DNA of 64,000 bases from Candidatus Latescibacterota bacterium (GCA_965203355.1 OZ241889.1:3904001-3968000), one strand, 5' to 3'. Counted from the stretch's first letter, positions 45,445 to 61,755 are shown. Translations and numbers: made by a program. Notes: generated from the sequence alone by a model not told the origin.

Positions 45445-47391
45445 TTAACTATTGGCAGGATCATCCACGCACAGAACTTCCAAAACGCCGTCGATGCGCT
45501 CGATTCGGTCCATGATCTGGCGCAGTTGCTGGTTGTCAACGACGTCGATCCAGAAGTTCATTACGGCGATGTGATCCTCGATGCGGGTAGTGGAGTCGCG
45601 GATGTTGAAGCCAGTTTCGCCGATCATCGTCGCGATGTCCCCCAGCAAGTTCTTGCGGTCCCAACTACGGATGCTTAACTGCACAGGAAAGGTCGGTTTG
45701 GGCTGGTCTATTCGGCTGATAACCTTGCCGATTGACAGGTGCCCTTTGCCGAGGGCCACGTAGAGCTGCTCGGTGCCCCTGAGCCCGAACTTCTGAGCCA
45801 CGGCATTGAGGTCGGGTAGGTCGGCGGTCCGTAGTCCTCTGTGGAGCACCTTCTTGCCCGAGCGGACGATGTCGTCGTATTCCTTCTTCCGTAGCCAGTG
45901 GCGGATGGCTTCAAGGGCCTTATCGGTCTTGGCTTGGTCCAGCCAAGAGAGTTGGGGGGTTTGCTGGGGGTCAGTAACGATGTCCACGGCTTCGCCGCTG
46001 TTCAAAGTCGCACCTAACGGTGTATCTCGACCGTTTACTTTGGCCTTCACACAGTGTATCCCGATGTCGGTGTGGACGGCAAAGGCTAAGTCGAGCGGCG
46101 TGGAGCCCTTGGGCAACTCGTATATGTAGCCTTTAGGAGTGATGACTAATATCTGGTCGAGAGACGCGATCCTGGTACTCACATTTTCCAAGAATTCGGG
46201 CAGGTCCTTAGCGTCGGCGGCTTGGCGTATCCAACTCGCGTGTTGGTCGAAATCGCTGGACCCCGCGTCGTTGGATTTGTAGCGCCAGTGGGCAGCAATG
46301 CCGATTTCAGCCGTTTGGTGCATCTCCTTGGTGCGGATTTGTACTTCGACATATTGGCCTTGAGGGCCAACCACCGACGTGTGTAGCGACTGGTAGCCGT
46401 TGCCCTTGGGTGTCAGTATATAGTTTTTGGTGTTAATAGCTTTGTAAATGTCGTGGATCGAATTGAGGATGGCATAGCATTGGTTCCTTGTGCCGGTGAT
46501 GATGCGTATGGCCAGCAGGTCGTAGATTTCTTCAAAGGGCTTACCGCGCTTCTTCATCTTATTGTAAATGCTATAGAAGTTCTTAGGACGGCTCGTAAAT
46601 TCGGCTTTAATGCCCTCTTCGTTCAGGTGCTTCTCGATTGGCACTTTGAACTTTTCTAGATAGGCTTCGCGCTCTTCGAGCGTCATGGCCACCTTGTCGC
46701 GCAACTCTTGGTAAATTTTGGGTTCGAGAAATTTGAGGCTTTGGTCTTCGAGTTGCCAGCGGAGCAGCGCCATCCCAAAGAGGTTAGCCAGCGGTGCGTA
46801 CAGGTCGAGCGTTTCCCGTGCCTTGCGCTCGCGGGATTGGGGGGGTAAGTGTTGGAGCGTACGCATGTTATGTAGGCGGTCGGCTAGCTTGATGGGAATG
46901 ACGCGGCCGTCCTTGGCCGCGGAGAGTAGCATCTTGACATAAGTCTCAAGTTGGCTCACCTGGGGGTTTTTGTCGGTTATCTGATCGATTTTGGTGACCC
47001 CGGCGATCAGTTCGGCGATCTCTTCGCCAAATTGTTTGGCAACCTCCTCATGCGTAGCCGGCGTATCCTCAACGACATCGTGCAACAGTCCGGCTGCAAC
47101 TGTAGTATCATCCAAGCCCAGTTGGACGAGCAGCCGAGCCACTTCGACGCAATGGATGAGGAACGGGGCGCCGGACTTGCGGGTTTGGCCTTTGTGATGC
47201 TCTTTGGCGAAGTAATAGGCGCGTTTGATCAGGGTGAACGGTTCGGAACCGGCTTTGGAGTTGGAGGAGTAGAACTCAATTAGCAGATCGGCCAGCGGCT
47301 CTTCGTTGCCTGCCAGCTCGACAATACAGTCCAACACGCCCCCCGAGGAGGTTTCAGATAAAGCCGAAAGATGTGTAGGAGTTTCAGTCAT
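45445..47391 (-). CDS. RelA/SpoT homologue (HD hydrolase, synthetase, TGS, ACT; no zinc-finger domain)
   Basis: LLHDVVED, IKLADRLHNMRTL, NGYQSLHT, EVQIRT, AAHWRYK and TPLDLAFAVHT motifs; C-terminal ACT domain. Confidence 0.9.
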   Translation of the reverse strand: MTETPTHLSALSETSSGGVLDCIVELAGNEEPLADLLIEFYSSNSKAGSEPFTLIKRAYYFAKEHHKGQTRKSGAPFLIHCVEVARLLVQLGLDDTTVAAGLLHDVVEDTPATHEEVAKQFGEEIAELIAGVTKIDQITDKNPQVSQLETYVKMLLSAAKDGRVIPIKLADRLHNMRTLQHLPPQSRERKARETLDLYAPLANLFGMALLRWQLEDQSLKFLEPKIYQELRDKVAMTLEEREAYLEKFKVPIEKHLNEEGIKAEFTSRPKNFYSIYNKMKKRGKPFEEIYDLLAIRIITGTRNQCYAILNSIHDIYKAINTKNYILTPKGNGYQSLHTSVVGPQGQYVEVQIRTKEMHQTAEIGIAAHWRYKSNDAGSSDFDQHASWIRQAADAKDLPEFLENVSTRIASLDQILVITPKGYIYELPKGSTPLDLAFAVHTDIGIHCVKAKVNGRDTPLGATLNSGEAVDIVTDPQQTPQLSWLDQAKTDKALEAIRHWLRKKEYDDIVRSGKKVLHRGLRTADLPDLNAVAQKFGLRGTEQLYVALGKGHLSIGKVISRIDQPKPTFPVQLSIRSWDRKNLLGDIATMIGETGFNIRDSTTRIEDHIAVMNFWIDVVDNQQLRQIMDRIERIDGVLEVLCVDDPANS

Positions 47392-47515
47392 GGAATTCTT
47401 TTTTCGTTCGCGTCTGTTAATATTGAATAAGTATTACAAAAAAACAAATATATACAAGCAGAAGTTTCACGCTCGTTTGTACGCACGGTAGAAGTCAAAC
47501 TAAAATGGGAAGAGA

Positions 47516-47902
47516 ATGTGGCTAAATACCGAAAATGCACCCGTGCTGACGCAAGCGGATAAAATTCTCGCGCTCGTCGTGGGCTTGAGTGCGATCGGGC
47601 TGATACTCTACGGCCGCTATACCGCCGAGGCTGGTGGCGTACTAAGCGTCGAGTTGGCTGGAGCCGCGCCCGCCACGCATGTCCTCTCAGATTACGGGGT
47701 CTTGCCCGTTGTAGGACCTTTGGGCGTGAGCCAGATCGAGATCGGCCCCAAAGGGGTGCGCGTACTTTCCGCACCTTGCGTCCACAAGCTCTGCATGCGG
47801 CGGGGCTGGATGCAGCGGGCCGGCGACGTGGCCGCGTGCGTACCTAATGGCCTAGTATTGAGGATCGCTGGGGCCGCGCCCATAGACGCGATGATTCACT
47901 GA
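47516..47902 (+). CDS. NusG domain II / DUF1312 membrane-anchored protein (EetA-like)
   Basis: N-terminal TM helix; GPLG...IEI and C..KLC...GW......ACVPN motif. Confidence 0.8.
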   Translation: MWLNTENAPVLTQADKILALVVGLSAIGLILYGRYTAEAGGVLSVELAGAAPATHVLSDYGVLPVVGPLGVSQIEIGPKGVRVLSAPCVHKLCMRRGWMQRAGDVAACVPNGLVLRIAGAAPIDAMIH

Positions 47903-48426
47903 TGTTTGCCCGCCCTAGAGACGTGGCTCGTTTGGGGCTTATGGCCAGTGCGGCAATTGTGCTCTTCGCCTTTGAATCGCTGGTACCCAAACCCTTGCCT
48001 TGGATGAAGCTGGGACTCGGCAACTTGCCGGTTTTGGTCGCGTTAGTGAGCTTTGGTGGCGGTCCAGCATTGGCCGTTAGTGCCATCAAGCTGGTAGTTG
48101 GCGGCTTGCTCAGCGGGGGATTTGCCGGTCCAGCCTTTGTCATTGGCGGCGGGGCTGGCTTGGCGAGTTGGTTGGTCATGGTTGCGGTGCGCCGCATGGG
48201 AGCAGGGCTTTTCAGCGTCGTGGGTCTGAGCATCTGGGGAGCGCTGGCGCACCAACTCAGCCAGCTCGTTCTCGCCGCTGGCTACATCGGCCACAGCGGT
48301 CTGTTCGCGCTTTTGCCGCTGGCCTTGTTCAGTGCCCTAATAAGCGGCGGGACGATCGGCCTGCTGGCTTGGTGGACCTTGGAGCAACTGGAGAAAATAG
48401 GCTGGTTGGACCAAGGCCAGTTATAA
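47902..48426 (+). CDS. Gx transporter / heptaprenyl-diphosphate synthase component I family membrane protein (EetB-like)
   Basis: FESLVP.P.P..KLGLGN, FS.VGLSI.GA..H...Q and G..IG motifs; TGATG coupling with the upstream gene. Confidence 0.8.
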   Translation: MFARPRDVARLGLMASAAIVLFAFESLVPKPLPWMKLGLGNLPVLVALVSFGGGPALAVSAIKLVVGGLLSGGFAGPAFVIGGGAGLASWLVMVAVRRMGAGLFSVVGLSIWGALAHQLSQLVLAAGYIGHSGLFALLPLALFSALISGGTIGLLAWWTLEQLEKIGWLDQGQL

Positions 48427-48455
48427 ATGTAATGTATAGACTTTAGATCGCTTCA

Positions 48456-50411
48456 ATGGACCTGCCCAAAAAGCCTACCTTGCAAACCGAACCGGTCTTC
48501 AGCACCAAAGCACTGGTCGCGGGCACCCTAGGGTCGCTGTGCATCGCCGTGGGAGCACCCTACGGCAACATGGTCATCCGCGGCTCCTACATGTCGATTG
48601 ATTTCAGCGCCGCGGGTGCCCTTTTCCTCTTCTTCTTGTTGACGGGCTTATTCAACGCCTTGTTGACGCGCTTTGCCGCTTCTGTGGCCCTCGGACGCTG
48701 CGAACTAATCGTCGCGTACATCATGATGCTCACGGCTTCGGCCATCCCGACGATGGGCCTCAGCGAATACTGGCTGACGATCATCACCGGTGCCCAGTAC
48801 TATGCCACCCCGGAAAACGAATGGGCCTTGCTCATCCTGCCGCACCTTCCCACGTGGATCGCACCGCAGGATCCCGAGGCGATCAAGTGGTTTTACGAAG
48901 GAGCACCTCGCACCACTGGGGTACCTTGGGCCGCTTGGAGCGGCCCGCTGTGCTATTGGACCATTCTGATCGTAGCCCTGTACTTGGTGATGATCTCGTC
49001 CATGGTCATTATGCGCCGCCAGTGGGTGGAGCGAGAGCGGCTGGTTTATCCGCTGGTGCAAGTGCCCTTGGCCATGGTCGAAAGCGGAGGCCGCGGACAG
49101 GCCCTAGGTCCTTTCTTCAAAAATCCAATCATGTGGGTCGGCTTTGCCCTGCCCGTGTTCGTCAGTAGTCTCAACGCCCTACACTCGTATTTCAACTTCA
49201 TCCCCGCCATCCAACTCGTCTCCTCGGTTCCGATCCTGCGCAACACCGTCAGCCTGATCTTCCGCCTGAGCTTTCCCATGATCGGGTTCGCCTATCTGAT
49301 CAACCTCGACATCGCCTTCAGCCTGTGGTTCTTCAACACCATCGCCAAGTTGATCCGAGGAGGGCTGGGAGTTTTAGGGATTGGCAGCACTGAAAAACTC
49401 GTTTACGGCGCTCCCAGCGAGCCAATTCTCGCCCACCAAGGGCAGGGCGCGATGATCGTCTTAGTGCTTTTCGGCCTGTGGGTCGGCCGCGAGCATCTGC
49501 GCGACGTACTGCGCAAAGCATTCCGAGGCGACGACCACATCGACGACAGCGGCGAGATGCTCTCCTATCGGACGGCGGTCTTAGCTTGGCTCTCCGGCGT
49601 CGCAGTCATGACCATCTGGCTGTGGCAGTCTGGCTTGCCGCTGTGGGCGGCCTTTTTGACCCTGATGTTGGCCATCCTTATCTTCGTCGGCTTGACCCGA
49701 GTGGTAGTGGAAGGAGGTGTGGCCGCGGCGGTCGGACCGATGATTTCTCCAACGGTCTTGGTTTCGGCCGTCGGAGTTTCGGCAATCGGCCCGACCGGCA
49801 TGGTCGGCCTCGCATATACCTTCGTGTGGGCGGCGGACATCCGCACCTTTGTCATGGCCTCCTGTGCGCACGGTCTCAAGTTGAGCGAGGGACTAGGCCC
49901 GCGGCTACGTCCGCTCTTTTGGTACATGCTGTTGGCCATTGTCGTTAGCATCGTCGGCTCGGTCGCAGCGATTTTGTACCTCGCCTACGAATACGGCGGC
50001 ATCAACCTCAACGCGTGGTTTTTTGGAGGTGGAACTCGTGCCCCTTTTGATTATATTACCACCAAGTTAAGCGCACCTACCGAGCCAAACATAGATGGTT
50101 GGATTCACACTTTTGTCGGCGGGGGCATCATGGCCCTGCTCATGTGGGCGCGCCAGCAGTTCTTGTGGTGGCCCCTGCATCCCATCGGCTATCCCATTGG
50201 TGCCGTATGGCTGATGGACCAGTTGTGGTTTAGCATTGCCATCGCTTGGCTCTTAAAGTTGTTGGCAATGAAATACGGTGGGCCCAGCCTTTTTCGCCGG
50301 GTACGTCCCTTTTTTCTAGGCTTGATCATAGGCCAGTTTTTCATCGCGGGACTCTGGTTGATTATCGACTTTTTTACGGGCATGACCGACAATGTGGTCT
50401 TCTGGATCTGA
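48456..50411 (+). CDS. DUF6785/DUF6784-type OPT-like polytopic membrane protein
   Basis: Many TM segments; RRQWVERERLVYPL, TRVVVEGG, WWPLHPIGY and YGG...FRR.RPFFLGLIIG motifs. Confidence 0.75.
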   Translation: MDLPKKPTLQTEPVFSTKALVAGTLGSLCIAVGAPYGNMVIRGSYMSIDFSAAGALFLFFLLTGLFNALLTRFAASVALGRCELIVAYIMMLTASAIPTMGLSEYWLTIITGAQYYATPENEWALLILPHLPTWIAPQDPEAIKWFYEGAPRTTGVPWAAWSGPLCYWTILIVALYLVMISSMVIMRRQWVERERLVYPLVQVPLAMVESGGRGQALGPFFKNPIMWVGFALPVFVSSLNALHSYFNFIPAIQLVSSVPILRNTVSLIFRLSFPMIGFAYLINLDIAFSLWFFNTIAKLIRGGLGVLGIGSTEKLVYGAPSEPILAHQGQGAMIVLVLFGLWVGREHLRDVLRKAFRGDDHIDDSGEMLSYRTAVLAWLSGVAVMTIWLWQSGLPLWAAFLTLMLAILIFVGLTRVVVEGGVAAAVGPMISPTVLVSAVGVSAIGPTGMVGLAYTFVWAADIRTFVMASCAHGLKLSEGLGPRLRPLFWYMLLAIVVSIVGSVAAILYLAYEYGGINLNAWFFGGGTRAPFDYITTKLSAPTEPNIDGWIHTFVGGGIMALLMWARQQFLWWPLHPIGYPIGAVWLMDQLWFSIAIAWLLKLLAMKYGGPSLFRRVRPFFLGLIIGQFFIAGLWLIIDFFTGMTDNVVFWI

Positions 50412-50428
50412 GAAAGGCACCTACAATT

Positions 50429-53400
50429 ATGCCTAAGTTCGCGATACAGTGGATGGCCTTCGGCTGGATTTTAGTCGGCGCAGCACCGGCTTGGACCGAA
50501 GTCGATTTTGCTGAATTGGCGCACGCGGCCCCGGTCGAGCGCGTCCGGCAGACAATGGACACTTTTGCCGGCTTGGGGTCTAGAGTCGCCGGCTATCGAG
50601 GTGCCGACCAAGCAGCCCAGATCGTGCAGGAACGCTTCCGCGCCATCGGCCTCGCCGACGTTACAGTCCACGAATACGATGTCTCTATTCCGGTCGATAA
50701 GGGCGGATTTCTGCAAGTAGTTGGCAGCGACGAACAAGTGCCCATCCACGGCCTGTGGCCCAACCTCGTCAAAACCTCGACGCTGCCCGAAGGCGGGGTG
50801 ACCAAGCGCTTGATTGACGCGGGCGCGGGTGAGTACGCAGACATGGACGGCAAGCAAGTCGAGGGGGCCGTGGCCCTGATGGACTTCAACTCGGGCGACG
50901 CTTGGCTCAATGCTGCTTATCTCGGGGCGCAAGCTATCATCTTTATCGAGCCGGACTCCACTGTGTACTTGGAGGGCGAAAAGAAATTTCTCTCCATGCC
51001 GCTCGACCTGCCGAGGTTTTGGGTCAATCGCCAAGTCGGTCAGCGCTTGCGTCGCCAGTTGGCAACCGAGGGAGAGCAAACGCTCCATCTACAGTACCGC
51101 ATGGATTGGGAGCGGCGTCCTGCTTGGAATATCCTCGGCACGATCCCCGGATACGATCCTTTGCTAAAAGAAGACGTGATCGTGCTAGAGGCGTACTACG
51201 ACGCCATGTCCGTTGTTCCGGCCCTTGCCCCAGGGGCCGAGCAAGCCTCCGGCATTACTGCGCTGTTGGAACTGGCGCGCTATTTCCGCGAAAATCCACC
51301 GGCGCGCACGGTCGTATTCCTCGCCACCTCGGCCCACCACCTAGGCTTGCGCGGGGTTGATGACTTCATCCAGCGCTATTTGCGCAAAGAGGACCCGTTC
51401 ATCGAGCACATGCTAGTGAGGCGGGTCGTCGATGCTGCTCTCGCGCGGAACATGATCGCCCAAGACGGCATCCACTACGCCATCGGCGAGGAGCAGTTCA
51501 CCGGTAAGGAAGCCCTGGTGCGGGGCGTTGCCGAAGGGCGCACCGACTTGGCCGAGCGCGTTGCCGACGCGGCCTTCGCCGAAGGCCTACTGAGCCAAGA
51601 AGGAGGCGCACTACACCTCGCCGACGAGCAATTCAAAGATCACCGCGCGCTAGTGGACGAACTGCGCTCGGACGACGACTTGCGACTCGAGCTCTTCAAA
51701 ACTTGGGTCGATCCCAAAGTCGATTCGCTCGCGGTCAAGCTCTTTATCAGCCTCGACCTTTCGTCGCAGACCGACGAACTCGGAGTGTGGAATAGCAATA
51801 CCAGCTTTTACTACAAGCGATACTTCGCGCCCTTCGGCAAGAACTTCATGGCCTATGCGCGCAAGATCAGCCGCGCGTTGGATTACCAGCGACGCGATGT
51901 ACTGGTCAATGGCATTAGTCCCGAAGGCGGGATGAGCTGGCAGACCTTTGTACCGGGTGAAATATCGGTCAACAGCGAATTGGTGTTGGCGACCGGTACG
52001 CCGGCATTGGCTTTTGTCACGGTCAACGACGCGCGCTTTCTCGTCGATACGCCCTTAGACCGGGCCGAGCACGTCAACTACGCCAATCTCGCCAAACAGA
52101 TCCGGGTGCTCGCTGGCATGTTCGAGATGGCCTTTGAAGACCCAGAGCTTTTCCCGGACTTCAAGATGCGCTTGCGCGACACGCTGCGCTCGCTGCGCGG
52201 CCGGACCATGGTTTTTCCGCGCCGCAGCATCATCCCCGACCTGCCGCGTACAGACGCCGTAGCCGTGGTGCGCAACGGCAAGAAAAAGTCGTATAAAGGC
52301 GTGCGCGGCGAGTACTACGAAGTCGTCGATGACAAAGGAGCCTTCTACGTAAATCGGGTGCGGGTCAACAACGTGCAGATCGAGGGCTACTACATGGACC
52401 CGATCACCGGCCGCATCACCTACGCCCCCGACCGCGGCGTGCAAGGCGACGAAAGCTACCCCATGCGGGTCGCCATGGACTGGCGCGACAAGCAATGGAT
52501 GGTCATCCTCTTCCCCTGCGTGCCCTACAATTTCTTCGACATCGTCGATCCGCGCTATTTGACCAAGCTGTCCAACGTGCAGGTCTTCGACGAGACCAAC
52601 AGCGCACCCGTGGAGTACGGTTATACCATCGGCGAAGGCCCCTCGGCCCAAAACGAGCCGGTCGGGGTGCTCTTTGCGCGGCCCGGTTCGCACATCAAGA
52701 TGGGGTTCGGGGCTGGCCTGCTGGGATTCCGCTCGCTCCTGCTCAACGCCACCAGCGTAACCGACAAGGAAAAAGCCGAGGGCGAGGGTTTTGAGATTCG
52801 CCCCGGCACTTCCTTTGCCCGCACGACCTTTCAAGCCGCCCAAGACATGTGGAATCTCAACGAGTCGCGCATGCGCGAGTTGCGGAGCTTTGCCATTGAA
52901 AACCAGCGCCTCAACGACCTCCACTACCGAGCCGAAGCCGAGTTAGCCCAAGCCGCCGAGGCCGAGGCCGAGCAGCGCTGGGGCGATTTCGTGCGCCACA
53001 CGCGCGCGGCCTTCGGGCTGGAGTCGCGTGCCTACCCAGACGTCAAATCCACTCAAAACGACGTCGTTCAGGGCATTATCTTCTTCATGGCCCTTGTCAT
53101 TCCCTGCGCCTTTTTCACCGAGCGGCTCATTTTTACGGCCGCCACGATCCGCAATCAAATCATCGGCTTTTCCGGGGTTTTCCTAGCGATCTGGATCGTG
53201 TTGTGGCTGGTGCATCCGGCCTTTCAACTATCCAATCCCTTCGTCATCCTGCTTGCTTTCATCATCATCGCCTTGGCCCTGCTGGTGATGTCGATCATCT
53301 CCGGCCGTTTCAACGAACAGATGAAGAAGCTGCGCACCGAGGTAGCCGTGATCCACGACACGGACGTCAGCCGCTCTTCGGCCTCGCTGACGGCCTTCCA

Positions 53401-55180
53401 GCTTGGGATTTCCAACATGAAGCGGCGCAAGACGCGCACGATGCTCACCTTTACCACGCTCTTGCTGCTGACGTTTACGGTGCTCTCTTTCACCTCCATC
53501 CGCACGGGCTTGCGGTTCAACCAAATCAGCCGCGACAACGAGGGTCTCTACGAGGGCATCCTCATCCGCAGTAAGGCGTGGAATCCCATGGAGGATTCGG
53601 TCCTCGAATACGCCCGCAGCAATTTCGGCGATCGCGCCGCAATCGCGCCGCGCAGTTGGTACAGCAACAAAGCCAAAGCACACATCAAAATAAAGCACGG
53701 GGAAAAGGCCCATAACGCGCTCGGCGTCCTAGGTTTAGCGCCCGAGGAAACTCAGGTCACTCGGCTCAACCAAGCCCTAGTTGCCGGGCGCTGGTTTGAA
53801 CCGGGCGAAGACAAGGTCTGCATCCTGCCCATCGACATGGTTAAAGAAGCTCATCTCGATGTCGATTTGGCCGACATTGGCCAAGCGCAAGTAAGGGTCT
53901 TCGGCAACTTGTTCACGGTGGTCGGCGTCATCGACTCTAAGCGCATGAAGGACCTCAAAGACCTCGACGACGAGATCCTAACACCGGCCGACTTCGCCGT
54001 CACCGGTGGCCAAGCGGTGCAGGAAATAGCCGAGGAAGAACAGCGCGAAAAGCAAGGGCTGGAGGACGCTAAGGTCGTCGTCAAGCCCTTCGTCCACATA
54101 GAGCCAGCCAACACCCTGATTATTCCCTACCATACGCTGCGCAACATCGGCAGTGGTAATCCCTTGCAGTCGGTAGCCGTGCGCTTCCCGGAAAGCAGTG
54201 ATGTACGCGGCGAGGTTGAGGAGTTCCTCTCGCGCCTCGCCGTGACGCTGTTCGCCGGCGTCAAGGAGGCTGGCGACGAATACATCAAGGTGTCGATCTA
54301 CTCGTCGCTGGGCATGACCTCCTTTTCCGGGATGAGCAACTTGTTCATCCCCATGCTGATTGCCTCGCTTATCGTACTCAACACCATGATGGGCAGCGTG
54401 TACGAGCGCTTCCGCGAGATCGGTATTTACTCTTCGGTCGGCCTAGCCCCGGGCCATATCTCTTGGCTCTTTATCGCCGAGAGTTGCGTCTATTCGGTGC
54501 TGGGCGTAGTCGCCGGTTATCTCAGCGGCCAAGTAATCGCCAAAGTGCTCATCGAATCGGACCTTTTGGGCGGCTTCACGCTCAACTACTCCTCGGTCGC
54601 CGCGGTGCTTTCCTGTATGCTGGTGATGGCCGTGGTCATGCTCTCGACGATTTATCCAGCGCGCAAGGCTTCGCAGATGGCCGTGCCAGACGTGACCCGC
54701 AAGTGGAAATTGCCAACGCCCGACGGCGACCAGTGGGATTTCGAGTTCCCCTTTACAGTCAGCGGCCACGAGGTCTTGGGCTTGAGCGTGTTCCTCATCG
54801 GCTACTTCGACTCCTACAGCGAAGAGTCCATCGGCACCTTCTATACCGACGGTGCCCAGCTAAGCCGCGAAGGAACGCCCAACGGCGAAGGATACATTAT
54901 CGACATGAATATCTGGCTGGCCCCTTTCGACTTGGGCGTCAGCCAACACGTCACCGTGCGGGCCATGCCAGAGGCCGAGCACAATATTTACGCGGTCAGC
55001 CTACAAATCAAGCGACTCAGCGGCGAGGACGCCTCGTGGCGGCGGGTCAACCAGCGCTTCATGAACGTCATCCGCAAACAGTTCCTCATCTGGCGCACGG
55101 TGGATACCGAGGCCAAGGAAGGCTATCGCCAACAGGGCGCGGAAATTCTGCAAGGGCTGCGCAGCGAAGTGTCGGCGTAA
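50429..55180 (+). CDS. 1583-aa secreted/membrane fusion: M28 peptidase-like and PA domains, TM helices, MacB/FtsX-like permease
   Basis: Signal peptide; SRVAGY.GA..AA, NILGTIPG, LEAYYD and SGITALLELARYF (M28 fold); SNMKRRKTRTMLT and NTMMGSVYERFREIGI...IYPARKAS (FtsX). Confidence 0.8.
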   Translation: MPKFAIQWMAFGWILVGAAPAWTEVDFAELAHAAPVERVRQTMDTFAGLGSRVAGYRGADQAAQIVQERFRAIGLADVTVHEYDVSIPVDKGGFLQVVGSDEQVPIHGLWPNLVKTSTLPEGGVTKRLIDAGAGEYADMDGKQVEGAVALMDFNSGDAWLNAAYLGAQAIIFIEPDSTVYLEGEKKFLSMPLDLPRFWVNRQVGQRLRRQLATEGEQTLHLQYRMDWERRPAWNILGTIPGYDPLLKEDVIVLEAYYDAMSVVPALAPGAEQASGITALLELARYFRENPPARTVVFLATSAHHLGLRGVDDFIQRYLRKEDPFIEHMLVRRVVDAALARNMIAQDGIHYAIGEEQFTGKEALVRGVAEGRTDLAERVADAAFAEGLLSQEGGALHLADEQFKDHRALVDELRSDDDLRLELFKTWVDPKVDSLAVKLFISLDLSSQTDELGVWNSNTSFYYKRYFAPFGKNFMAYARKISRALDYQRRDVLVNGISPEGGMSWQTFVPGEISVNSELVLATGTPALAFVTVNDARFLVDTPLDRAEHVNYANLAKQIRVLAGMFEMAFEDPELFPDFKMRLRDTLRSLRGRTMVFPRRSIIPDLPRTDAVAVVRNGKKKSYKGVRGEYYEVVDDKGAFYVNRVRVNNVQIEGYYMDPITGRITYAPDRGVQGDESYPMRVAMDWRDKQWMVILFPCVPYNFFDIVDPRYLTKLSNVQVFDETNSAPVEYGYTIGEGPSAQNEPVGVLFARPGSHIKMGFGAGLLGFRSLLLNATSVTDKEKAEGEGFEIRPGTSFARTTFQAAQDMWNLNESRMRELRSFAIENQRLNDLHYRAEAELAQAAEAEAEQRWGDFVRHTRAAFGLESRAYPDVKSTQNDVVQGIIFFMALVIPCAFFTERLIFTAATIRNQIIGFSGVFLAIWIVLWLVHPAFQLSNPFVILLAFIIIALALLVMSIISGRFNEQMKKLRTEVAVIHDTDVSRSSASLTAFQLGISNMKRRKTRTMLTFTTLLLLTFTVLSFTSIRTGLRFNQISRDNEGLYEGILIRSKAWNPMEDSVLEYARSNFGDRAAIAPRSWYSNKAKAHIKIKHGEKAHNALGVLGLAPEETQVTRLNQALVAGRWFEPGEDKVCILPIDMVKEAHLDVDLADIGQAQVRVFGNLFTVVGVIDSKRMKDLKDLDDEILTPADFAVTGGQAVQEIAEEEQREKQGLEDAKVVVKPFVHIEPANTLIIPYHTLRNIGSGNPLQSVAVRFPESSDVRGEVEEFLSRLAVTLFAGVKEAGDEYIKVSIYSSLGMTSFSGMSNLFIPMLIASLIVLNTMMGSVYERFREIGIYSSVGLAPGHISWLFIAESCVYSVLGVVAGYLSGQVIAKVLIESDLLGGFTLNYSSVAAVLSCMLVMAVVMLSTIYPARKASQMAVPDVTRKWKLPTPDGDQWDFEFPFTVSGHEVLGLSVFLIGYFDSYSEESIGTFYTDGAQLSREGTPNGEGYIIDMNIWLAPFDLGVSQHVTVRAMPEAEHNIYAVSLQIKRLSGEDASWRRVNQRFMNVIRKQFLIWRTVDTEAKEGYRQQGAEILQGLRSEVSA

Positions 55181-55193
55181 GGGAGGATAGCGA

Positions 55194-57617
55194 GTGCTCG
55201 GAAGGAAAAATAGAAACCCGAACCAAGAGATAGAAGAATATCGGGATCTAATGCAGGTCCCGGACCGCTTCGAGAACGGCTTTACGATCAAGGCTATACT
55301 CGGTGTGTTCTTCGTCGCCTTCATCATGGTGCCGGGCAACATGTACTTAAGCCTGATGATCGGCGGCTCTTTGGGGGCCGCGGCCGAGTGGGTGACCATC
55401 ATCCTCTTCGCCGAAATCACCAAGCGCTCCTTCTCCTCCCTCCGGCGCCAAGAAGTCTATGTGTTGTTCTACGTGGCTTCCTCGCTGATCGCCGCGGAGA
55501 CCGGCGCCTTTGAGGGCTTGCTCTACAACCAGTACTTGGTGCAATCGCCGGCGGCCAAGCAGTTCGGCATAACCAATCTGATCCCCACTTGGGTGGCGCC
55601 GCCGGCCGACTCCCTCGCCATCATCGAGCGCACCTTCCTGCACTCGGATTGGGCGATGCCGATCGTCCTCCTAGTCTTGGGGATGATCATCTCGCGCATC
55701 AACTGGTTCACGATGTCGTACGCGCTCTTCCGGCTTAGTTCCGACTACGAGCGCCTGCCCTTTCCCTTCGCGCCCGTAAACGCCCAAGGAGCTACGGCAC
55801 TGGCCGAGACCACCCAAGGGGTTGAGACGTGGCGCTGGCGCGTATTTTCGGCCGGGGCGATGATCGGCTTGGTCTTTGGCACGATCTACGTGGCCCTGCC
55901 GGCGATTACGGGCGCACTGCTGACCGAGCCGATCCAACTCATACCCATTCCCTTTATCGATTTCACGCAAGTTACCGGCAACTTCATCCCGGCCACTCCG
56001 CTGGGATTTTCTGCACACTTGGGGCCGGTGTTCACCGGGCTAGTGGTCCCATTCTGGGGCGTGGTCGGCACCTTTATCGGCGTGGTCGTCGCCTCAATCG
56101 CCAATCCGCTGCTCTATACTTGGACGCCGCCGTGGCGCGAGGACGAGGGGCCTTACCTGAACTTGTGGCAGCAAGGCATGGGCACGGTCGAGACCTTTTT
56201 CGTCAACAACGTCGATTTCTGGATGAGTTTCGGCATCGGCACCACCATCGCCATCGCCGTCATCGGCATCTATCAGGTGTTTCAGAGCGTGCGCAGTGCT
56301 AGGGCCAACGCCGGGAATGAAGGCGAGCCCAAGCGCAGTTTCGCCACGCCAGTGGGCCGGGGCGATTTCCCCATCTGGCTGGCGCTGGCCCTATACGCCT
56401 TGGCCACGGCTGGCCTGATAGGCATCGCCGCTTGGCTGCTGCCGGGCATTGCCCAATTTATATGGTTTTTCCTCTTTTTTGGTTTTGTATTTACGCCCTT
56501 TCAATCCTTTGTCAACGCCCGCCTAGTCGGGATGGTGGGGCAGACGGTGGACATCCCCTTCGTGCGCGAGGCCACGATTATCTTCTCTGGGTATCGCGGC
56601 GTTGACATCTGGTTCATTCCGTTTCCCTTGGGCAACTACGGTGCCCAAACCATGAAGTTCCGCGAAATCGAACTGACCGGCACCCAGTTTACTAGCATCA
56701 TCCGCGCCGAGATTTTCATGGTGCCCATCGTGCTCTTTACCAGTTTTCTCTACGGCTCCTATATCTGGAAACTGGCACCGATCCCCTCGGCCTCCTATCC
56801 CTATGCCCAGCTAATCTGGCGGCTGCGCGCCTACCAGCAATGCCTCTTTATCACCGGCACCATGCGCAGCGAACTAGCCATAGACAATGATCGGGCGGGA
56901 TGGACCCCGGCTAACCTGATTGAAAACGAGTGGTGGTACTGGCGGGTGCGGCTAGTGGATCAGGAGTGGCTGGATTCCAACGGCAAGCGCGGCCAAGTCG
57001 GTCGGTGGATGCCGACCCAAGTTTTCTACTCGTACTTCGAGCAAGGGGCGCCCGACATCGTCGCCGAGCGCTATCTGCGCGACGACCCGCTATCTGAGGA
57101 AGTTGTCGAGGGGCTACCGGCCATTGCGCCACTAAGGCCGACTATGGACGCCGTCATCCGCACCCCCCGCCCGACGCTCGAAGTGCAGGTTGAGCGGGCC
57201 GTGCCAGCGGGATGGTCCTTCTACTTTGAAGTGGATACCGATCCGCTCTTTACCAGCTCTTGGATCCAGCGTTCCACCGATGAGCCTTGGCTCTTTAAGG
57301 CCCTGAAAGAAGAGGTCATCGCCTTTGGTGCTGTCTTTGGGCTGGTGAGTTTCATTCTGCTGTCCATTCTCGGGCTGCCGATCCTGCTGATCTTTGGCTT
57401 CGTGCGCTCGCTGACGACCTTGCCGCATTTCGTGGTGACTGAGATCGTCGGTGCGCTCTTGGCCCGCTACTACTTTTGGAACAAGTACGGGCGGCAGGAA
57501 TGGCGGCAGTTTGCCCCCATTCTGGCCGTGGGCTTTTCCTGCGGCATGGCATTGATGGGGATGGCGTCGGTGGGGATCGCCCTGATCCAGAAATCGGTCT
57601 CCGTGTTGATCTTTTAG
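55194..57617 (+). CDS. OPT-like 'peptide transporter' membrane protein with a soluble Ig/FN3-like insertion
   Basis: GTG start with GGAGG RBS; many TM segments; ERLPFPFAPV, WRWRVFS.G..IG and IWKLAPIPS..YPY motifs. Confidence 0.7.
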   Translation: MLGRKNRNPNQEIEEYRDLMQVPDRFENGFTIKAILGVFFVAFIMVPGNMYLSLMIGGSLGAAAEWVTIILFAEITKRSFSSLRRQEVYVLFYVASSLIAAETGAFEGLLYNQYLVQSPAAKQFGITNLIPTWVAPPADSLAIIERTFLHSDWAMPIVLLVLGMIISRINWFTMSYALFRLSSDYERLPFPFAPVNAQGATALAETTQGVETWRWRVFSAGAMIGLVFGTIYVALPAITGALLTEPIQLIPIPFIDFTQVTGNFIPATPLGFSAHLGPVFTGLVVPFWGVVGTFIGVVVASIANPLLYTWTPPWREDEGPYLNLWQQGMGTVETFFVNNVDFWMSFGIGTTIAIAVIGIYQVFQSVRSARANAGNEGEPKRSFATPVGRGDFPIWLALALYALATAGLIGIAAWLLPGIAQFIWFFLFFGFVFTPFQSFVNARLVGMVGQTVDIPFVREATIIFSGYRGVDIWFIPFPLGNYGAQTMKFREIELTGTQFTSIIRAEIFMVPIVLFTSFLYGSYIWKLAPIPSASYPYAQLIWRLRAYQQCLFITGTMRSELAIDNDRAGWTPANLIENEWWYWRVRLVDQEWLDSNGKRGQVGRWMPTQVFYSYFEQGAPDIVAERYLRDDPLSEEVVEGLPAIAPLRPTMDAVIRTPRPTLEVQVERAVPAGWSFYFEVDTDPLFTSSWIQRSTDEPWLFKALKEEVIAFGAVFGLVSFILLSILGLPILLIFGFVRSLTTLPHFVVTEIVGALLARYYFWNKYGRQEWRQFAPILAVGFSCGMALMGMASVGIALIQKSVSVLIF

Positions 57618-57618
57618 C

Positions 57619-58611
57619 ATGAGCGGCTCGGTGGATTTCGCTTGGCAAGGGTTGCGGCTGTCCGTGCCCGACGATTGGAACCTCGGCCGAGTTGACGGGG
57701 ATTTTGAAAAGGGCTATGCCCGCCTCGACGACGCCGAAATCGTCCGCGCCGAGATCGAATGGCGGCGGCTCAAAGGCCGCGGCGAAGCCCTGCGTCTGAC
57801 CGAGTTGGTAGATCGCTATCTGGCCAACTTGCGAAAGAAGGCCCAAAAGGTCGATGCTCCCTTTGAGGTTCAACGCCGCGCCCGATTCCTCAAAAACAAG
57901 AAGTTCCTCGCCGGCCGCGAATACGAGGTCTTCACTTGGGAGGCCGACTTCCGCGCGTACAACCTAGCACTCGCCTTAGAGTCCGGGCGCGTAGTGCTCC
58001 TGAGAGTGCTGGCCAAGTTAGACGAGTTTTTGCCCGAGCAAGCCGAGGCCGTGTTCAGCTCGCTCGTCGATCAAGAAGGCGAGGCCGCGCATCTGTGGAG
58101 CGTGTATGGCTTGCGGTTCTTCGCGCCCAACGACCTCAAGCTACAAAGCCACTCCCTCAAGTCGGGCCACATCGAGCTAGCGTTTTCCCTCGGCAAACAA
58201 GTTCTAAAGGTACATCGTTTGAGTATGGCCCGGATCATGCTCAAAGACGCGCACATTCAAGACTGGTATCCAGTTTTTTTTAAGAAGCAATTGCGCGATT
58301 TCGTGGTGGATATTACTCCAGAAGCCGTGCGGGAACACGAGGGCATTCGCATCGAGGGGCGGCCGCGCAGCCGCTGGCGTCAACTACTGCGACCCCTGCC
58401 CTTTATGAACCCGAGGCCGCGCCTGTACATGCGGGGGCGCGTCTGGCGCGATACCAGCATCGACAAAATCGCCATCGTCGAGCACCTCTATCGCAAAAAA
58501 AACGCAGCAGACGATCTAGTCGCCAAGGTAGTAGATGGGCATTTTATCGAAAAACAAGGGACCCAAGCTGAGTCGGGCCGCCATGCTGGCGTCGCGGCCA
58601 ACGCGCAATGA
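57619..58611 (+). CDS. Conserved-looking soluble hypothetical protein with an internal duplication
   Basis: Starts 1 nt after the upstream stop; FAWQGLRLSVPDDW and WSVYGLRFFAPNDL begin two similar halves. Confidence 0.7.
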   Translation: MSGSVDFAWQGLRLSVPDDWNLGRVDGDFEKGYARLDDAEIVRAEIEWRRLKGRGEALRLTELVDRYLANLRKKAQKVDAPFEVQRRARFLKNKKFLAGREYEVFTWEADFRAYNLALALESGRVVLLRVLAKLDEFLPEQAEAVFSSLVDQEGEAAHLWSVYGLRFFAPNDLKLQSHSLKSGHIELAFSLGKQVLKVHRLSMARIMLKDAHIQDWYPVFFKKQLRDFVVDITPEAVREHEGIRIEGRPRSRWRQLLRPLPFMNPRPRLYMRGRVWRDTSIDKIAIVEHLYRKKNAADDLVAKVVDGHFIEKQGTQAESGRHAGVAANAQ

Positions 58612-58966
58612 GTCCCTGCACTGGGAAAACAACGACAACGGCGAGGTCCAGGTCTCAATAAAGCGCCAAGATACCTATAAGGTGCGGTTGTTGTCCAAGT
58701 TTTTCTACATTCCCAAGCAGCGCAAAATCACCCTCGACGAGGTCGGCAGCGAGGTCTGGCGGATGTGCAATGGCCGCAACTCGGTCGGCAGGATGATCGA
58801 GGAACTCAGCGACAAGTACCAACTCAATCGCAAGGAGGCCGAGGTCTCCCTGCTCCAGTATTTGAAGACCCTTGGGCAGAAGCGCTTTATCGGTTTTGTG
58901 TTAGAAAGCGACGAGAGGCCACCCGGTCGCGGCGCGGCCAGCGGAAAAAAATGGCAAAAAAAATAA
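58535..58966 (+). CDS. PqqD-family / RiPP recognition element (RRE) protein
   Basis: LDEVGSEVWRMCNGRNSV..MIEEL..KY......EVSL..YL..L..K.FI is the wHTH RRE pattern. Confidence 0.8.
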   Translation: MGILSKNKGPKLSRAAMLASRPTRNESLHWENNDNGEVQVSIKRQDTYKVRLLSKFFYIPKQRKITLDEVGSEVWRMCNGRNSVGRMIEELSDKYQLNRKEAEVSLLQYLKTLGQKRFIGFVLESDERPPGRGAASGKKWQKK

Positions 58967-59571
58967 ACAAAGGAGAGCAATTAGCTCGTCCCTTGTTTCT
59001 TCTGCACCCGCACCAAATCGCACGCTTTTTCTCCCATTTACTCAATCCCGCGCTGTTGGCACTCTTAGTCTTCGGCGTCCAAGCGCACGTGTTGGGCGAC
59101 TGGCTCGCCGGCTCGGTGGCGATCGGCATCTTCTCCTTGGTTCCCGGACTGTTACTCTGGTATTTGGTGCGCTCGGGCTATCTCGACAAAGCCTATACAG
59201 ACGACCGCAAAAAACGCGCTACTCTGCTCTTGCTGGGCGTCCTGTGCTATGCCTTGGGGAGTGCGGCCCTCTACGGGATCGGAGCCCCGCGCCTGATGCT
59301 GGTCACGGCCGCGTCCTGTGCCGTCAACGCGCTCTTGGTTTGGTGGATCAATCGCTCCTATAAGATCAGTATTCACGCGGCTGGTGTCGGCGGGGCAACC
59401 TGTGTATTGTTGATCAGCGTCGGCAGCGCGGCGTGGCCCTTCTTGTTCAGTTGGCCGACCGTCGCTTGGGCGCGGCTTTACTTGCGGGCACATACTCCCA
59501 TGCAGATCGGCGCGGGCGGTGCGCTGAGCGCGGGGAGTATGGCCCTGCTGTACCGTGTTTTCATCTGGTGA
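58951..59571 (+). CDS. PAP2-like membrane protein
   Basis: Six to seven TM segments; KISIH and WARLYLRAHT..Q motifs. Confidence 0.65.
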   Translation: MAKKINKGEQLARPLFLLHPHQIARFFSHLLNPALLALLVFGVQAHVLGDWLAGSVAIGIFSLVPGLLLWYLVRSGYLDKAYTDDRKKRATLLLLGVLCYALGSAALYGIGAPRLMLVTAASCAVNALLVWWINRSYKISIHAAGVGGATCVLLISVGSAAWPFLFSWPTVAWARLYLRAHTPMQIGAGGALSAGSMALLYRVFIW

Positions 59572-61755
59572 GTGCAGCACATGAACCAATCGTATAAGGG
59601 CTTTATAGATCGCCTGACCTACCACAACCCGGAAAACGGCTATACCATCGCGCGCTTAGTAATAGAGGGCCAGCGCGAGCGTATCGCCATTGTGGGGACG
59701 CTTGCCTCCATCCAAGAGGGCGAGAGCGTCGAAGTCGAAGGCGTGTGGACCAATCATCCCAAATACGGCAAACAGCTCAAGGTAGAGCACTATAAAGCCG
59801 TTTATCCCTCGACCCTTGAAGGTATGCAAAAGTACCTCGGGTCCGGTTTGATCAAAGGCATCGGGCCGCGGTCGGCCAAGCGCATTGTCGACCACTTTGG
59901 CGCGGAAACGATCGACATCATCGACGCGGATCCTCACCGGCTAGAGGAAGTCCCCAAGCTGGGCAAGAAGAAAGTCGAACTGATCGCCGAGGCCTGGGAT
60001 GAGCAGCGGCAAATCAAGGATGTGATGGTCTTTTTGCAATCGCACGGGATTACCACCGGCTACGCAGTGAAAATTTTCAAGACCTACGGCCAAGAGGCCA
60101 TCCAGAAGGTGCGCAGCGATCCCTATCGCCTAGAGCGCGATGTGGATGGGATCGGCTTCCGCATCGCCGACCGCATTGCCCAGCGCTTGGGCCTGGGCCA
60201 CGACGCACCCGAGCGCGTACAGGCCGGTATTCGCTACCTGCTCTCCGAAGCGACCGACGAAGGCCATGTGTACCTGCCGGCTGTCGAAATGATGGAACGG
60301 GCCGTCGAAATTTTGGCGATCGACGCCGAATCGCTGCCGCCAGCATTGGAGGCCCTGCGCGCCTCCGACGGCGTGGTCACCGAAGACTTGCGCTACTATC
60401 TGCCGCCACTCCACCGCGCCGAAGTGGGCACCGCATCGTCGCTAAAGCGGCTTCTACAAGCACCGGCCGAAGAATTGGCTGTGCCCGCAGAAGCAGAAGA
60501 CGAGCTGGAATTGGCTCCGGCGCAAAGACAGGCCGTGGAACTAGTGGCCACCAGCAAGGTACTGGTGCTGACCGGCGGTCCGGGTACGGGCAAGACCACG
60601 GTCACTCGGCGCATCTTGCGCCTGTTGGAGGAAGGTGGCCTCAAGGTCGCGCTGTGCTCGCCTACGGGCCGCGCCGCCAAGCGGCTGAGCGAGGCCAGCG
60701 GGCGCGGGGCCAAGACCATTCATCGGCTGCTCGGATTTCAGCCGGGCGAGCGGCAATTCAAAAAGGGCTACGACGACCGCCTCGAAATCGACGCGCTGAT
60801 CGTCGATGAGGCTTCCATGATCGACGTGGTACTGATGAACGCGCTCCTGCGCGCCCTACCCGATCACGCTCGGCTGGTGCTAGTCGGCGACATTGACCAA
60901 CTGCCCTCGGTGGGGCCGGGCAACATGCTCCGCGACATCATCGACTCTGCTGAAGTGCCGGTGGTGCGTCTGACGCAGATTTTTCGCCAAGCGCAAAGAA
61001 GCCACATCATCCGCAACGCGCACCGCATCAACAGCGGCGAAATGCCTATCGTCGAGAACCAAGCGGACGCGGATTTCTACTTCATCCAAGCAGGTGACCC
61101 AGAGCGGGTGGTCGAGTTGGTGGAGGAGTTGTGCGCCACGCGGCTACCCAGCTATCGGCGATGGGACCGGCGCAACGACATCCAAGTGCTTGCGCCCATG
61201 TACCGCGGCGAAACTGGCGCACTCAACCTCAACCAGCGGCTGCAACAGCGCCTCAACCCGCACGGCCAAGCACATGGCCATCGCGGGGCTGAGTTCCGGG
61301 TGGGCGACAAGGTCATGCAGGTCAAAAACAACTACGACAAGGGCGTTTTTAACGGCGACATCGGCGCGATCGAGCGGCTCGACGCAGAAAAGCAGCTACT
61401 CTACGTGCGCTTTGACCACACTTTGGAATACGATCAAGTCGATCTCGACCAGCTAACCCTCGCCTACGCCATCAGCATCCACCGCTCTCAAGGCTCGGAA
61501 TTCCCCGTGGTGGTGCTGCCGCTGACGACGCAGCACTACGTGATGCTTCAGCGCAACCTGCTCTACACGGCGATTACCCGCGCCAAGCAAATGGTCGTCA
61601 TCGTCGGTACCCTCAAGGCCCTCAAGCTGGCCATTGCCAACGATAAGGTCGCCCAGCGCTATACCACGCTCAAGGAGCGGCTGCGCGGCGAGGTCGGTAC
61701 GGTGATGGAAGCGGGGCAAGCCATCCCATTGGAATCAACACTGCCGAGCGATTGA
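59572..61755 (+). CDS. recD2: ATP-dependent RecD-like DNA helicase
   Basis: HPKYGKQ, YLGSGLIKGIGP, GGPGTGKT, VDEASM, GDIDQLPSVG and LAYAISIHRSQGSEF motifs. The start may be ATG at 59581. Confidence 0.95.
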   Translation: MQHMNQSYKGFIDRLTYHNPENGYTIARLVIEGQRERIAIVGTLASIQEGESVEVEGVWTNHPKYGKQLKVEHYKAVYPSTLEGMQKYLGSGLIKGIGPRSAKRIVDHFGAETIDIIDADPHRLEEVPKLGKKKVELIAEAWDEQRQIKDVMVFLQSHGITTGYAVKIFKTYGQEAIQKVRSDPYRLERDVDGIGFRIADRIAQRLGLGHDAPERVQAGIRYLLSEATDEGHVYLPAVEMMERAVEILAIDAESLPPALEALRASDGVVTEDLRYYLPPLHRAEVGTASSLKRLLQAPAEELAVPAEAEDELELAPAQRQAVELVATSKVLVLTGGPGTGKTTVTRRILRLLEEGGLKVALCSPTGRAAKRLSEASGRGAKTIHRLLGFQPGERQFKKGYDDRLEIDALIVDEASMIDVVLMNALLRALPDHARLVLVGDIDQLPSVGPGNMLRDIIDSAEVPVVRLTQIFRQAQRSHIIRNAHRINSGEMPIVENQADADFYFIQAGDPERVVELVEELCATRLPSYRRWDRRNDIQVLAPMYRGETGALNLNQRLQQRLNPHGQAHGHRGAEFRVGDKVMQVKNNYDKGVFNGDIGAIERLDAEKQLLYVRFDHTLEYDQVDLDQLTLAYAISIHRSQGSEFPVVVLPLTTQHYVMLQRNLLYTAITRAKQMVVIVGTLKALKLAIANDKVAQRYTTLKERLRGEVGTVMEAGQAIPLESTLPSD

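Follow-up and report, generated by a model that had tools for sequence, protein, structure and literature searches.

A packed gene cluster in a Latescibacterota genome

We analysed a stretch of 64,000 nucleotides (nt) from a Candidatus Latescibacterota bacterium (GCA_965203355.1, OZ241889.1:3904001-3968000; hereafter the window), whose proteins share 91-96% identity with their counterparts on several chromosomes among the metagenome-assembled genomes (MAGs) of Latescibacterota. Six co-directional genes within it, which we call g1 to g6 (Table 1), encode two polytopic membrane proteins of OPT type (g1 and g3), a giant protein in which a head resembling M28 peptidases and their PA domain is fused to a MacB/FtsX permease (g2), a soluble protein with two similar domains (g4), a PqqD-type protein (g5) and a small membrane protein (g6). 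A preliminary description, made from the sequence alone, had proposed the six as a candidate peptide-handling machine. The open reading frames (ORFs) lie where it placed them, with gaps of 17, 13 and 1 nt followed by overlaps of 77 nt (g4/g5) and 16 nt (g5/g6). The idea of one six-gene unit does not survive comparison with related loci, where only g2 and g3 are invariably linked, g4 and g5 are bound to one lineage and g6 follows recD2: the conserved core is g2 with g3, usually accompanied by g1, which is frequent but dispensable. The longest ORF of g2 would start at a TTG at 50246 and run into g1, and we use the ATG start here; the start chosen for g5 is backed by an N-terminus kept in 19 aligned sequences, those of the window and 18 orthologues.

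Table 1. Genes and features of the cluster and its surroundings (window positions, except where a related locus is named; aa, amino acids; TM, transmembrane)
Feature	Position	Strand	Description
g1	48456-50411	+	651 aa; DUF6785+DUF6784 polytopic membrane protein, divergent full-length OPT-superfamily member
g2	50429-55180	+	1583-aa giant (from ATG); M28/PA-like head and MacB/FtsX permease
g2, M28/PA-like head	50567-52063	+	aa ~47-545; non-canonical, near-invariant pocket Y256, D258, E271, H303, H304, D443, D540
g2, three extra TM helices	53063-53299	+	aa 879-957; from hydropathy scan; highly conserved in the family alignment
g2, MacB/FtsX type VII ABC permease module	53438-54679	+	aa 1004-1417; TM1, periplasmic core domain, TM2-4
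g2, C-terminal tail	54680-55177	+	aa 1418-1583 (~165 aa); without family; cytoplasmic by predicted topology; many invariant columns
g3	55194-57617	+	807-aa membrane protein with predicted OPT/YSL fold
g3, beta-rich inserted domain	56871-57293	+	aa ~560-700; from DSSP of the model; absent from ~630-680-aa relatives
g4	57619-58611	+	330-aa cytoplasmic protein; two predicted PsbP/Mog1-like domains
g5	58535-58966	+	143-aa PqqD/RRE-type protein
g6	58951-59571	+	206-aa protein with five TM segments, weakly PAP2-like
NusG_II-domain gene	47516-47902	+	start of the nine-gene run
Hpre_diP_synt_I-family membrane gene	47902-48426	+	1-nt overlap with the NusG_II gene; 29-nt gap to g1
recD2	59572-61755	+	TIGR01448, 892 bits; 0-nt gap after g6
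tRNA-Phe(GAA) of related loci	L043 2925-3000; L059 3161-3236	opposite	upstream of g1

Two membrane proteins of the OPT superfamily

The protein encoded by g3 matches no Pfam family even at E≤10, PF03169 (OPT) included, has no significant NCBIfam match, and finds no relative in the PDB by sequence or with the profile of its family. Its AlphaFold2 (AF2) model, built on 72 sequences, has a mean predicted local distance difference test (pLDDT) score of 90.1 and a predicted template-modelling score of 0.87. A Foldseek search of the PDB with this model gave two hits at E≤0.001, both of them barley YS1 (7wst, E 4.9e-9; 7wsr, E 4.5e-8), with template-modelling scores normalised to the target of 0.62-0.64, and the modelled fold of g3 is that of the OPT/YSL carriers to which YS1 belongs. 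The family is large, with at least 2497 homologues; an exhaustive search returned 959 cluster representatives at E≤0.001, many of them 620-700 aa long, and in two sets of relatives at roughly 25-40% identity to g3, 5 of 18 and 15 of 28 members match PF03169. As relatives align to g3 in two stretches, residues ~25-557 and the C-terminus, the beta-rich segment between them is an insertion. One longer relative of 1083 aa carries a PDZ domain (residues ~752-789) within its extra length over g3. The automatic Protein Atlas cluster name for g3, 'peptide transporter', we treat as a lead only.

The protein encoded by g1 matches Pfam DUF6785 (E 1.6e-124) and DUF6784 (E 1.1e-31), does not reach PF03169, and has no PDB relative by sequence. 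BLASTP finds nothing between g1 and g3, and their kinship is revealed only by profile comparison, in which hhalign aligns the two families over 436 columns (96.7% probability, E 3.5e-10). The g1 family aligns better still, nearly end to end over 580 columns (99.0%, E 3.1e-18), with the ~630-aa relatives among which 15 of 28 match PF03169. Since the profile of the g1 family matches these OPT-positive relatives, the two domains together make up a divergent OPT-type protein, and g1 and g3 are both members of the OPT superfamily, as had been surmised. The motif described earlier as common to the two reads ERERLVYP in g1 and YERLPFP in g3, and hhalign places the two copies opposite each other. A simple hydropathy scan finds 11 hydrophobic segments in g1 and 10 in g3 against an OPT expectation of 16 or 17 TM helices, and the AF2 model of g3 shows more membrane-length helices than the 10 of the scan.

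A giant protein that joins a peptidase-like head to an FtsX permease

The product of g2 carries, in order, an N-terminus that looks signal-peptide-like by eye (it is not flagged by the hydropathy scan), the M28/PA-like head, an unassigned region, three extra TM helices, a MacB-type periplasmic domain, FtsX and the tail; residues ~560-880 and the last ~165 have no Pfam match. The fusion of an M28/PA-like part to a MacB/FtsX part, which had been read from the sequence together with its unusual M28 residues, is borne out by Pfam, by alignments to PDB entries and by counts over homologues. The Peptidase_M28 profile (PF04389) matches residues 234-319 at E 8.4e-10, covering only positions 1-79 of its 193. 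Residues 47-321 align with the PA-bearing M28 aminopeptidases YwaD (6hc6, E 5e-10) and 2ek8 (E 2.7e-6), and the family profile reaches PDB aminopeptidases at 8e-12; residues 119-230 are aligned through the PA-bearing 2ek8 and 6hc6, with no separate PA-domain test. An insert of ~120 aa, helical in character, splits the M28 domain.

In the C-terminal half, Pfam places MacB_PCD at residues 1004-1195 and FtsX at 1306-1417, and sequence and profile searches of the PDB match MacB, LolC, LolF and YtrF, the match to MacB 5lil spanning residues 1230-1417. Seven TM segments were found by the hydropathy scan, those of the permease at 1006, 1299, 1344 and 1390, so that g2 has a complete MacB/FtsX module in the order TM1, periplasmic core domain (PCD), TM2-4. 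The loop between TM2 and TM3 reads ERFREIGIYSSVGLAP, in which we presume a resemblance to the coupling helix that docks the ATPase.

The pocket of the head departs from that of the M28 enzymes in a consistent way. The set His97, Asp117, Glu151, Glu152, Asp179 and His256 of the Aeromonas aminopeptidase (AAP) corresponds to Y256, E271, H303, H304 and, for the last two, probably D443 and D540 of g2. The histidine of the HxD motif is replaced by Y256, the region of Asp117 reads E271-Q, and H303-H304 fall on AAP positions 151 and 152, the best AAP match being an entry with His at 151; D443 and D540 would occupy the last two ligand positions, judging from their motifs. Among 65 homologues the residues are kept in 63 (Y256), 65 (E271), 65 (H303), 59 (H304), 65 (D443) and 61 (D540). 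As the substitutes are near-invariant, the M28 pocket has been altered and has not decayed, which points to a working site for a ligand or a metal.

Conservation and linkage across related loci

To see which genes travel together, we scanned one genome per species with a 15-sequence alignment of g3 and took the 80 best among 545 g3 relatives that were confirmed, every one from a Latescibacterota-type MAG, mapping their neighbours by tblastn and ORF clustering. By identity to the g3 of the window, 41 of these loci form group A (≥57.5%), 33 form group B (50-57%) and 6 form group C (<50%). A g2 gene precedes g3 in the same orientation in 79 of the 80; the one exception has a flank of 1.2 kb, and all 76 loci whose flank reaches 1.5 kb show this order. 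Where at least 7 kb is available upstream, g1 precedes g2 in 17 of 32 loci of group A, 29 of 31 of group B and 6 of 6 of group C (one locus, L078, has three copies of g1). Where at least 1.6 kb is available downstream, g4 and g5 follow in 37 of 38 loci of group A and in none of groups B (0/33) and C (0/6). Co-occurrence in other genomes, whose absence the preliminary description had named as a ground for rejection, is found for g2 and g3 and mostly for g1; g6 keeps to recD2, and g4 and g5 are missing from the paralogous groups.

In group A the entire neighbourhood from relA to recD2 is syntenic, so that adjacency within this group says little by itself. Other genomic neighbourhoods surround the loci of groups B and C, which retain g1-g2-g3; the copies of group C do so with a g3 only 41-47% identical to that of the window (best segment). 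In four assemblies a group C and a group A locus occur in one genome (L022 and L078, on the same contig; L012 and L077; L010 and L079; L019 and L074). That paralogous copies keep g1-g2-g3 elsewhere argues for function and not for inherited synteny; through duplication and relocation it is g1-g2-g3 that stays together as a module. The genes g4 and g5 are lineage-specific accessories of a single orthologous lineage.

These comparisons bear on one alternative, that g2 and the OPT-like proteins are neighbours through co-regulation or history, each working alone. Such a view would be in keeping with the failure to find fusion proteins, with the dispensability of g1, with the inherited relA-recD2 synteny of group A and with the origin of all 80 loci in one phylum-level lineage. 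Against it stand the adjacency of g2 and g3 in those distant paralogues amid unrelated neighbours and the gap of only 13 nt between the two genes in the window, and we regard it as very unlikely.

The limits of the unit cannot be taken from spacing. The tight co-directional run in the window comprises nine plus-strand genes (47516-61755), which is longer than the six of the preliminary description: it begins with the NusG_II and Hpre_diP_synt_I genes, ends with recD2, and has a divergently oriented relA/spoT gene upstream. Since packing extends past the six genes on both sides, spacing alone cannot delimit a functional unit. The NusG_II and Hpre_diP_synt_I genes may be co-transcribed with the cluster in the lineage of the window; they directly precede g2 in group A loci that have no g1, and are absent from groups B and C. 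A scan for promoters and terminators gave 3 promoter-like sites where 5.2 are expected and weak terminator-like sites inside genes only, and Rfam has no match over 45000-64000.

A similar picture emerges for g6, which is probably not part of the system and travels with recD2. Of 32 group A loci, 29 have g6 inside the flank, where it stays beside recD2; its distance from g5 is -12 nt in 9 of them, 56-434 nt in another 7 and 1.5-2.9 kb in the other 13. In 12 ORF maps an opposite-strand flagellin gene (Flagellin_N and Flagellin_C) stands between g5 and g6, for instance at 14074-15237 of L030.

The paralogous loci have surroundings of their own. Directly downstream of g3, several group B loci encode multi-domain shell proteins of bacterial microcompartments (BMCs) with four BMC stretches (L043, 12418-14229; L068, 13258-14418), followed by genes of the DHDPS family, PhyH and the enolase superfamily. 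In four loci of group C (L074, L077, L079 and L080) the genes downstream of g3 encode a YbjN/CesT_Tir_1-like chaperone, PspA/IM30 and a spermine-synthase-domain protein, and L074 has a small DnaJ-domain gene in addition.

The accessory proteins

The cytoplasmic protein g4 has no significant Pfam or NCBIfam match and no relative in the PDB by sequence. Its AF2 model (pLDDT 84.9) shows two PsbP/Mog1-like domains, and the hydropathy scan finds no TM segment, in agreement with the earlier reading of a soluble protein with two repeats. Foldseek ranks first the two-domain type VI secretion immunity protein TplEi/Tli4, followed by PsbP, Mog1 and EagT6, and folds of this kind serve to bind proteins. 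The 126 homologous clusters of the family, from Latescibacteria, Handelsmanbacteria and MAGs labelled Gemmatimonadetes, are all unnamed or 'hypothetical', the Protein Atlas clusters being likewise unnamed, and the NCBI locus tags, where given, adjoin those of g3.

The identification of g5 as a PqqD/RRE protein holds: the Pfam PqqD profile (PF05402) matches at E 1.5e-10 with 41.7 bits against a cut-off of 23.4. It stays below the cut-off of all four NCBIfam PqqD models, the best being the GeoRSP type with 31 bits against 100. A basic N-terminal extension and an ASGKKW tail are conserved among orthologues. When g4 and g5 were modelled together from alignments, the best score was 0.20 against a mark of 0.32, which speaks neither for nor against binding.

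For g6, five TM segments are found, and the proposed likeness to PAP2 stands as a set of weak signals: there is no significant Pfam or NCBIfam match, PF01569 (PAP2) being reached at E 0.15 with 12.3 bits against a cut-off of 27.2, and a profile search of the PDB finds glucose-6-phosphatase at E 0.084 and LpxE at E 0.4, both weak. An SIH and an R-x5-H motif, which we take to be those of PAP2, are conserved.

Search for an ATPase

An FtsX-type permease calls attention to its ATPase, and here the window is silent, as the preliminary description had noted. No ATPase of an ATP-binding cassette (ABC) transporter was found in the 64 kb, either by Pfam over the 40 other ORFs or by tblastn with a LolD-like ATPase; the sole ABC_tran match is a 1889-aa UvrA-like protein, and the tblastn query reaches only that region, at E 0.001. 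Around the related loci, no ATPase lies within ±10 kb in 70 of 80. In the other 10, all of group B, an ABC ATPase of 252-287 aa is encoded on the strand of g1, 0.4-0.9 kb ahead of that gene (e.g. L043, 1799-2587). Its best NCBIfam matches are LolD, DarD, FtsE, MacB, YbbA and DevA, all of them ATPases that serve FtsX-type permeases, and no permease gene is recognisable beside it, its neighbours being a GSDH fragment, a xylose-isomerase-like TIM protein and an unassigned ORF. This orphan ATPase of LolD/FtsE/MacB type is suggestive as a candidate energiser of g2. In nine other group B loci, genes for an RND_mfp/HlyD-like protein and an FGE-sulfatase stand upstream in place of the ATPase.

In every one of the 14 loci of group B that were scanned, a tRNA-Phe(GAA) gene lies on the opposite strand some 200-300 bp upstream of g1, irrespective of the gene that comes next. 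It separates the ATPase gene from g1 in nine of the ten ATPase loci (the tenth, L044, fell outside the scan). What had looked like a conserved small protein between ATPase and g1 in group B was this tRNA-Phe gene read in the wrong sense, and the idea that the ATPase shares an operon with the cluster was dropped once the tRNA was recognised.

A proposed uptake mechanism and its alternatives

We propose that an ATP-driven periplasmic head for capture or processing feeds importers of OPT type, and give this reading a probability of about 40%. As a type VII permease, g2 would carry no substrate across the inner membrane and would act as a mechanotransmitter, in which ATP hydrolysis in the cytoplasm sets a periplasmic domain in motion (PMC5985334, PMC11627006, PMC11491553). 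An ATPase of LolD/FtsE type encoded elsewhere would drive the FtsX module of g2; g2 would then move its M28/PA-like head to capture, and perhaps trim, periplasmic peptides or peptide-like nutrients; g3 and g1 would import the products by cation symport; and in the lineage of the window g4 and g5 would act in the cytoplasm, where they would receive or sense the ligand once it is imported, or else regulate the carrier. The partnership with an ATPase, the direction of transport, the peptide nature of the substrate and physical contact between g2 and the OPT-type proteins are what we infer here. The uptake reading draws on the uptake-only record of characterised OPT proteins, their frequent coupling to peptidases in the genome or in one protein, the intact FtsX module, the conserved pocket, the gene linkage and the presence of peptide-binding folds; the PqqD/RRE fold of g5 is one such fold and was counted, together with the PDZ-bearing relative of g3, for a link to peptides. 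The first two of these grounds come from passages of a 2011 review of the OPT family (PMC3061005), according to which all characterised members are cation-coupled uptake systems, prokaryotic OPT genes often lie beside peptidase genes and gene context argues that many prokaryotic OPTs carry peptides; the same passages record that no prokaryotic member had been biochemically characterised by then.

Several observations weigh against this proposal. The zinc-ligand and catalytic Glu set of M28 is absent from the head in the alignments with 6hc6, 2ek8 and 2anp, and peptidase activity is doubtful because these canonical residues are missing. No ATPase gene is found in the window or near most of the related loci and, where one is near, the intervening opposite-strand tRNA-Phe means that ATPase and cluster are transcribed separately; inherited synteny may explain why the ATPase lies so near. 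From 15 of the 32 orthologous group A loci with enough flank g1 is missing. The neighbours in group B (among them epimerase, amidohydrolase, PhyH, enolase-superfamily, DHDPS, BMC shell and FGE-sulfatase genes) are of the kind that handles sugars or organic acids and are no peptidases. No fused long form of g3, with FtsX or another partner, was found, which is weak evidence. Lastly, OPT substrates extend beyond peptides, the passages of the review naming metal chelates, glutathione and a predicted oligosaccharide subgroup (PMC3061005), to which another paper reportedly adds folate (PMC12687453).

This last point leads to an alternative in which the architecture is the same and the cargo is not, the head being a non-catalytic receptor and the OPT-like proteins YSL-type carriers for metal chelates (metallophores) or some other non-peptide nutrient. 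The head itself would suit such a role, having lost the canonical M28 catalytic set and kept its acidic and His residues invariant. The transferrin receptor and nicalin are M28/PA-fold receptors without catalytic activity, and nicalin is among the PDB matches of g2 at E 8e-4 to 7e-3. The neighbours of group B are non-peptide catabolic enzymes, and several paralogous copies per genome resemble substrate-specialised uptake loci. The only significant structural matches of g3 are to YS1, a transporter of Fe(III)-phytosiderophore, and prokaryotic OPTs are all placed in an iron-siderophore subdivision in the passages of the review (PMC3061005); however, YS1 is the sole OPT-family structure among the Foldseek hits, so that the match cannot discriminate between substrates, and the gene context reported in the same passages favours peptides for many prokaryotic OPTs. 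Moreover, the neighbours scanned include no TonB-dependent receptor, no metal regulator and no gene for making a metallophore. On balance we hold this version to be unlikely.

A second alternative reverses the direction: g2 with its ATPase would expel or present a peptide or envelope component in the manner of MacAB-TolC or LolCDE, or would turn its own hydrolase-like periplasmic head on and off, in the way that FtsEX controls cell-wall hydrolases. Under both versions, recycling of the products set free would fall to the OPT-like proteins, and g5 would be the binder of an exported peptide. No type VII ABC system characterised so far is known to us to import; they work outward or on partners in the periplasm, which fits the three papers cited above for the mechanotransmission principle. 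The RRE-type fold of g5 is known from the maturation of ribosomally synthesised and post-translationally modified peptides (RiPPs), and some surroundings of the paralogues would agree as well, namely the HlyD-like adaptor gene upstream in nine group B loci and the YbjN/CesT_Tir_1-like and PspA membrane-stress genes after the group C copies. However, the FGE-sulfatase gene lies between the HlyD-like gene and g1, as does the tRNA-Phe in both loci scanned for it (L059 and L064). The window has no precursor peptide, adaptor or outer-membrane factor and, as the preliminary description had also stated, no RiPP-modifying enzyme, none of the families being found among the 49 window ORFs scanned; the gaps of 17, 13 and 1 nt are too short to hold a precursor gene. 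Further, none of the 39 paralogous loci, which keep the core, has g4 or g5, and the characterised OPT proteins are importers (PMC3061005, in the passages cited above). We therefore consider outward action distinctly improbable.

Returning to uptake, a stronger form of our proposal is that g2 and the OPT-like proteins build one physical machine, a hybrid of primary and secondary transporter, with a LolD-like ATPase supplied in trans and a head that both captures and gates. Such a hybrid would also, in our judgement, be distinctly improbable.

Comparison with known systems

No part of the cluster falls outside the known superfamilies; what is new is how the parts are combined, together with the fused head and the altered M28 pocket. 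With the OPT/YSL family (TC 2.A.67; PF03169; YS1 structures 7wst and 7wsr) g3 has its fold in common, and g1 is homologous to PF03169-positive relatives. Unlike OPT/YSL members, g1 and g3 both miss PF03169, g3 has its beta-rich insert of ~140 aa, and both are locked beside an FtsX-type giant. A pairing of protease-like module and OPT carrier has been described in fungal and plant OPTs with fused proteases (Ncr4 with S41, Osa16 with pepsin; in the passages of PMC3061005); unlike these, the protease-like module here is a separate gene product and part of an ABC-type mechanotransmitter.

Among the type VII ABC systems (MacB, LolCDE, FtsEX, YtrF, BceB) g2 finds the same layout of FtsX and MacB_PCD, and an ATPase of the LolD/FtsE/MacB type lies near some of its paralogues. 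It differs from them by ~880 additional periplasmic residues that include the M28/PA-like head, by three TM helices and by a tail of 165 aa; no ATPase is fused or co-transcribed, and its partner genes encode secondary carriers. Unlike MacAB-TolC, the window has neither a periplasmic adaptor nor an outer-membrane factor. The head, over residues 47-321, is similar to the M28+PA aminopeptidases (YwaD, 6hc6; the Aneurinibacillus enzyme, 2ek8; Aeromonas AAP, 1amp) and to nicalin (7tm3). It departs from the M28 enzymes by the changes His97 to Tyr, Asp117 to Glu and Glu151/Glu152 to His-His, and by being membrane-anchored and fused to FtsX.

For the accessories, g5 matches Pfam PqqD like the PqqD/RRE chaperones of RiPP pathways, but neither a precursor nor a modifying enzyme is nearby. 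The two domains of g4 place it, by its model, with the PsbP/Mog1-fold proteins (PsbP, Mog1, Tli4/TplEi and Eag chaperones) at an identity of only 8-16%; unlike these, it has no Pfam family, is cytoplasmic and is confined to Latescibacterota-type MAGs.

Literature searches, with subscription journals outside their reach, found no account of such an FtsX/M28/OPT/PqqD system in Latescibacteria and no mention of DUF6785 or DUF6784, in line with the earlier statement that no characterisation was known.

Other features of the window

The window holds several further genes of note. At 61832-62602 (minus strand) an ORF of 256 aa with no Pfam match contains 8.8 copies of a 21-nt tandem repeat (62262-62446), which encodes the perfect heptad DVAVLKT about eight times. 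The UvrA-like protein of 1889 aa mentioned above (8377-14046) has two sets of UvrA interaction and DNA-binding domains with several ABC/P-loop stretches, and looks like a doubled UvrA. An N6_N4 DNA methylase (1455-3126) beside an unassigned ORF in the stretch of lowest GC content (0.468 at 2001-4000), a REase_MTES_1575/DUF3320 protein (62882-63994) and a T5orf172-domain gene (7476-8270) mark regions that may be islands of restriction or defence genes. Also encoded are a TPR-containing, TMEM260-like protein O-mannosyltransferase (15375-17951) and a NamZ exo-beta-N-acetylmuramidase (18544-20142).

Implications

Pfam DUF6785 and DUF6784 find their place in the OPT superfamily, for which two OPT-fold proteins tied to a defined partner offer a handle on function. 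A type VII ABC system that carries a peptidase-like head and is tied to importers would widen a repertoire from which, to our knowledge, only exporters, extractors and regulators of enzymes in the periplasm have been characterised. The hybrid machine, if real, would be an undescribed coupling of primary and secondary transport and the first type VII ABC system with a part in import, and would do the work of the substrate-binding proteins of classical importers. For the uncultured phylum Latescibacterota, in which the system is present in up to several copies per genome, it may bear on how these bacteria acquire their nutrients.

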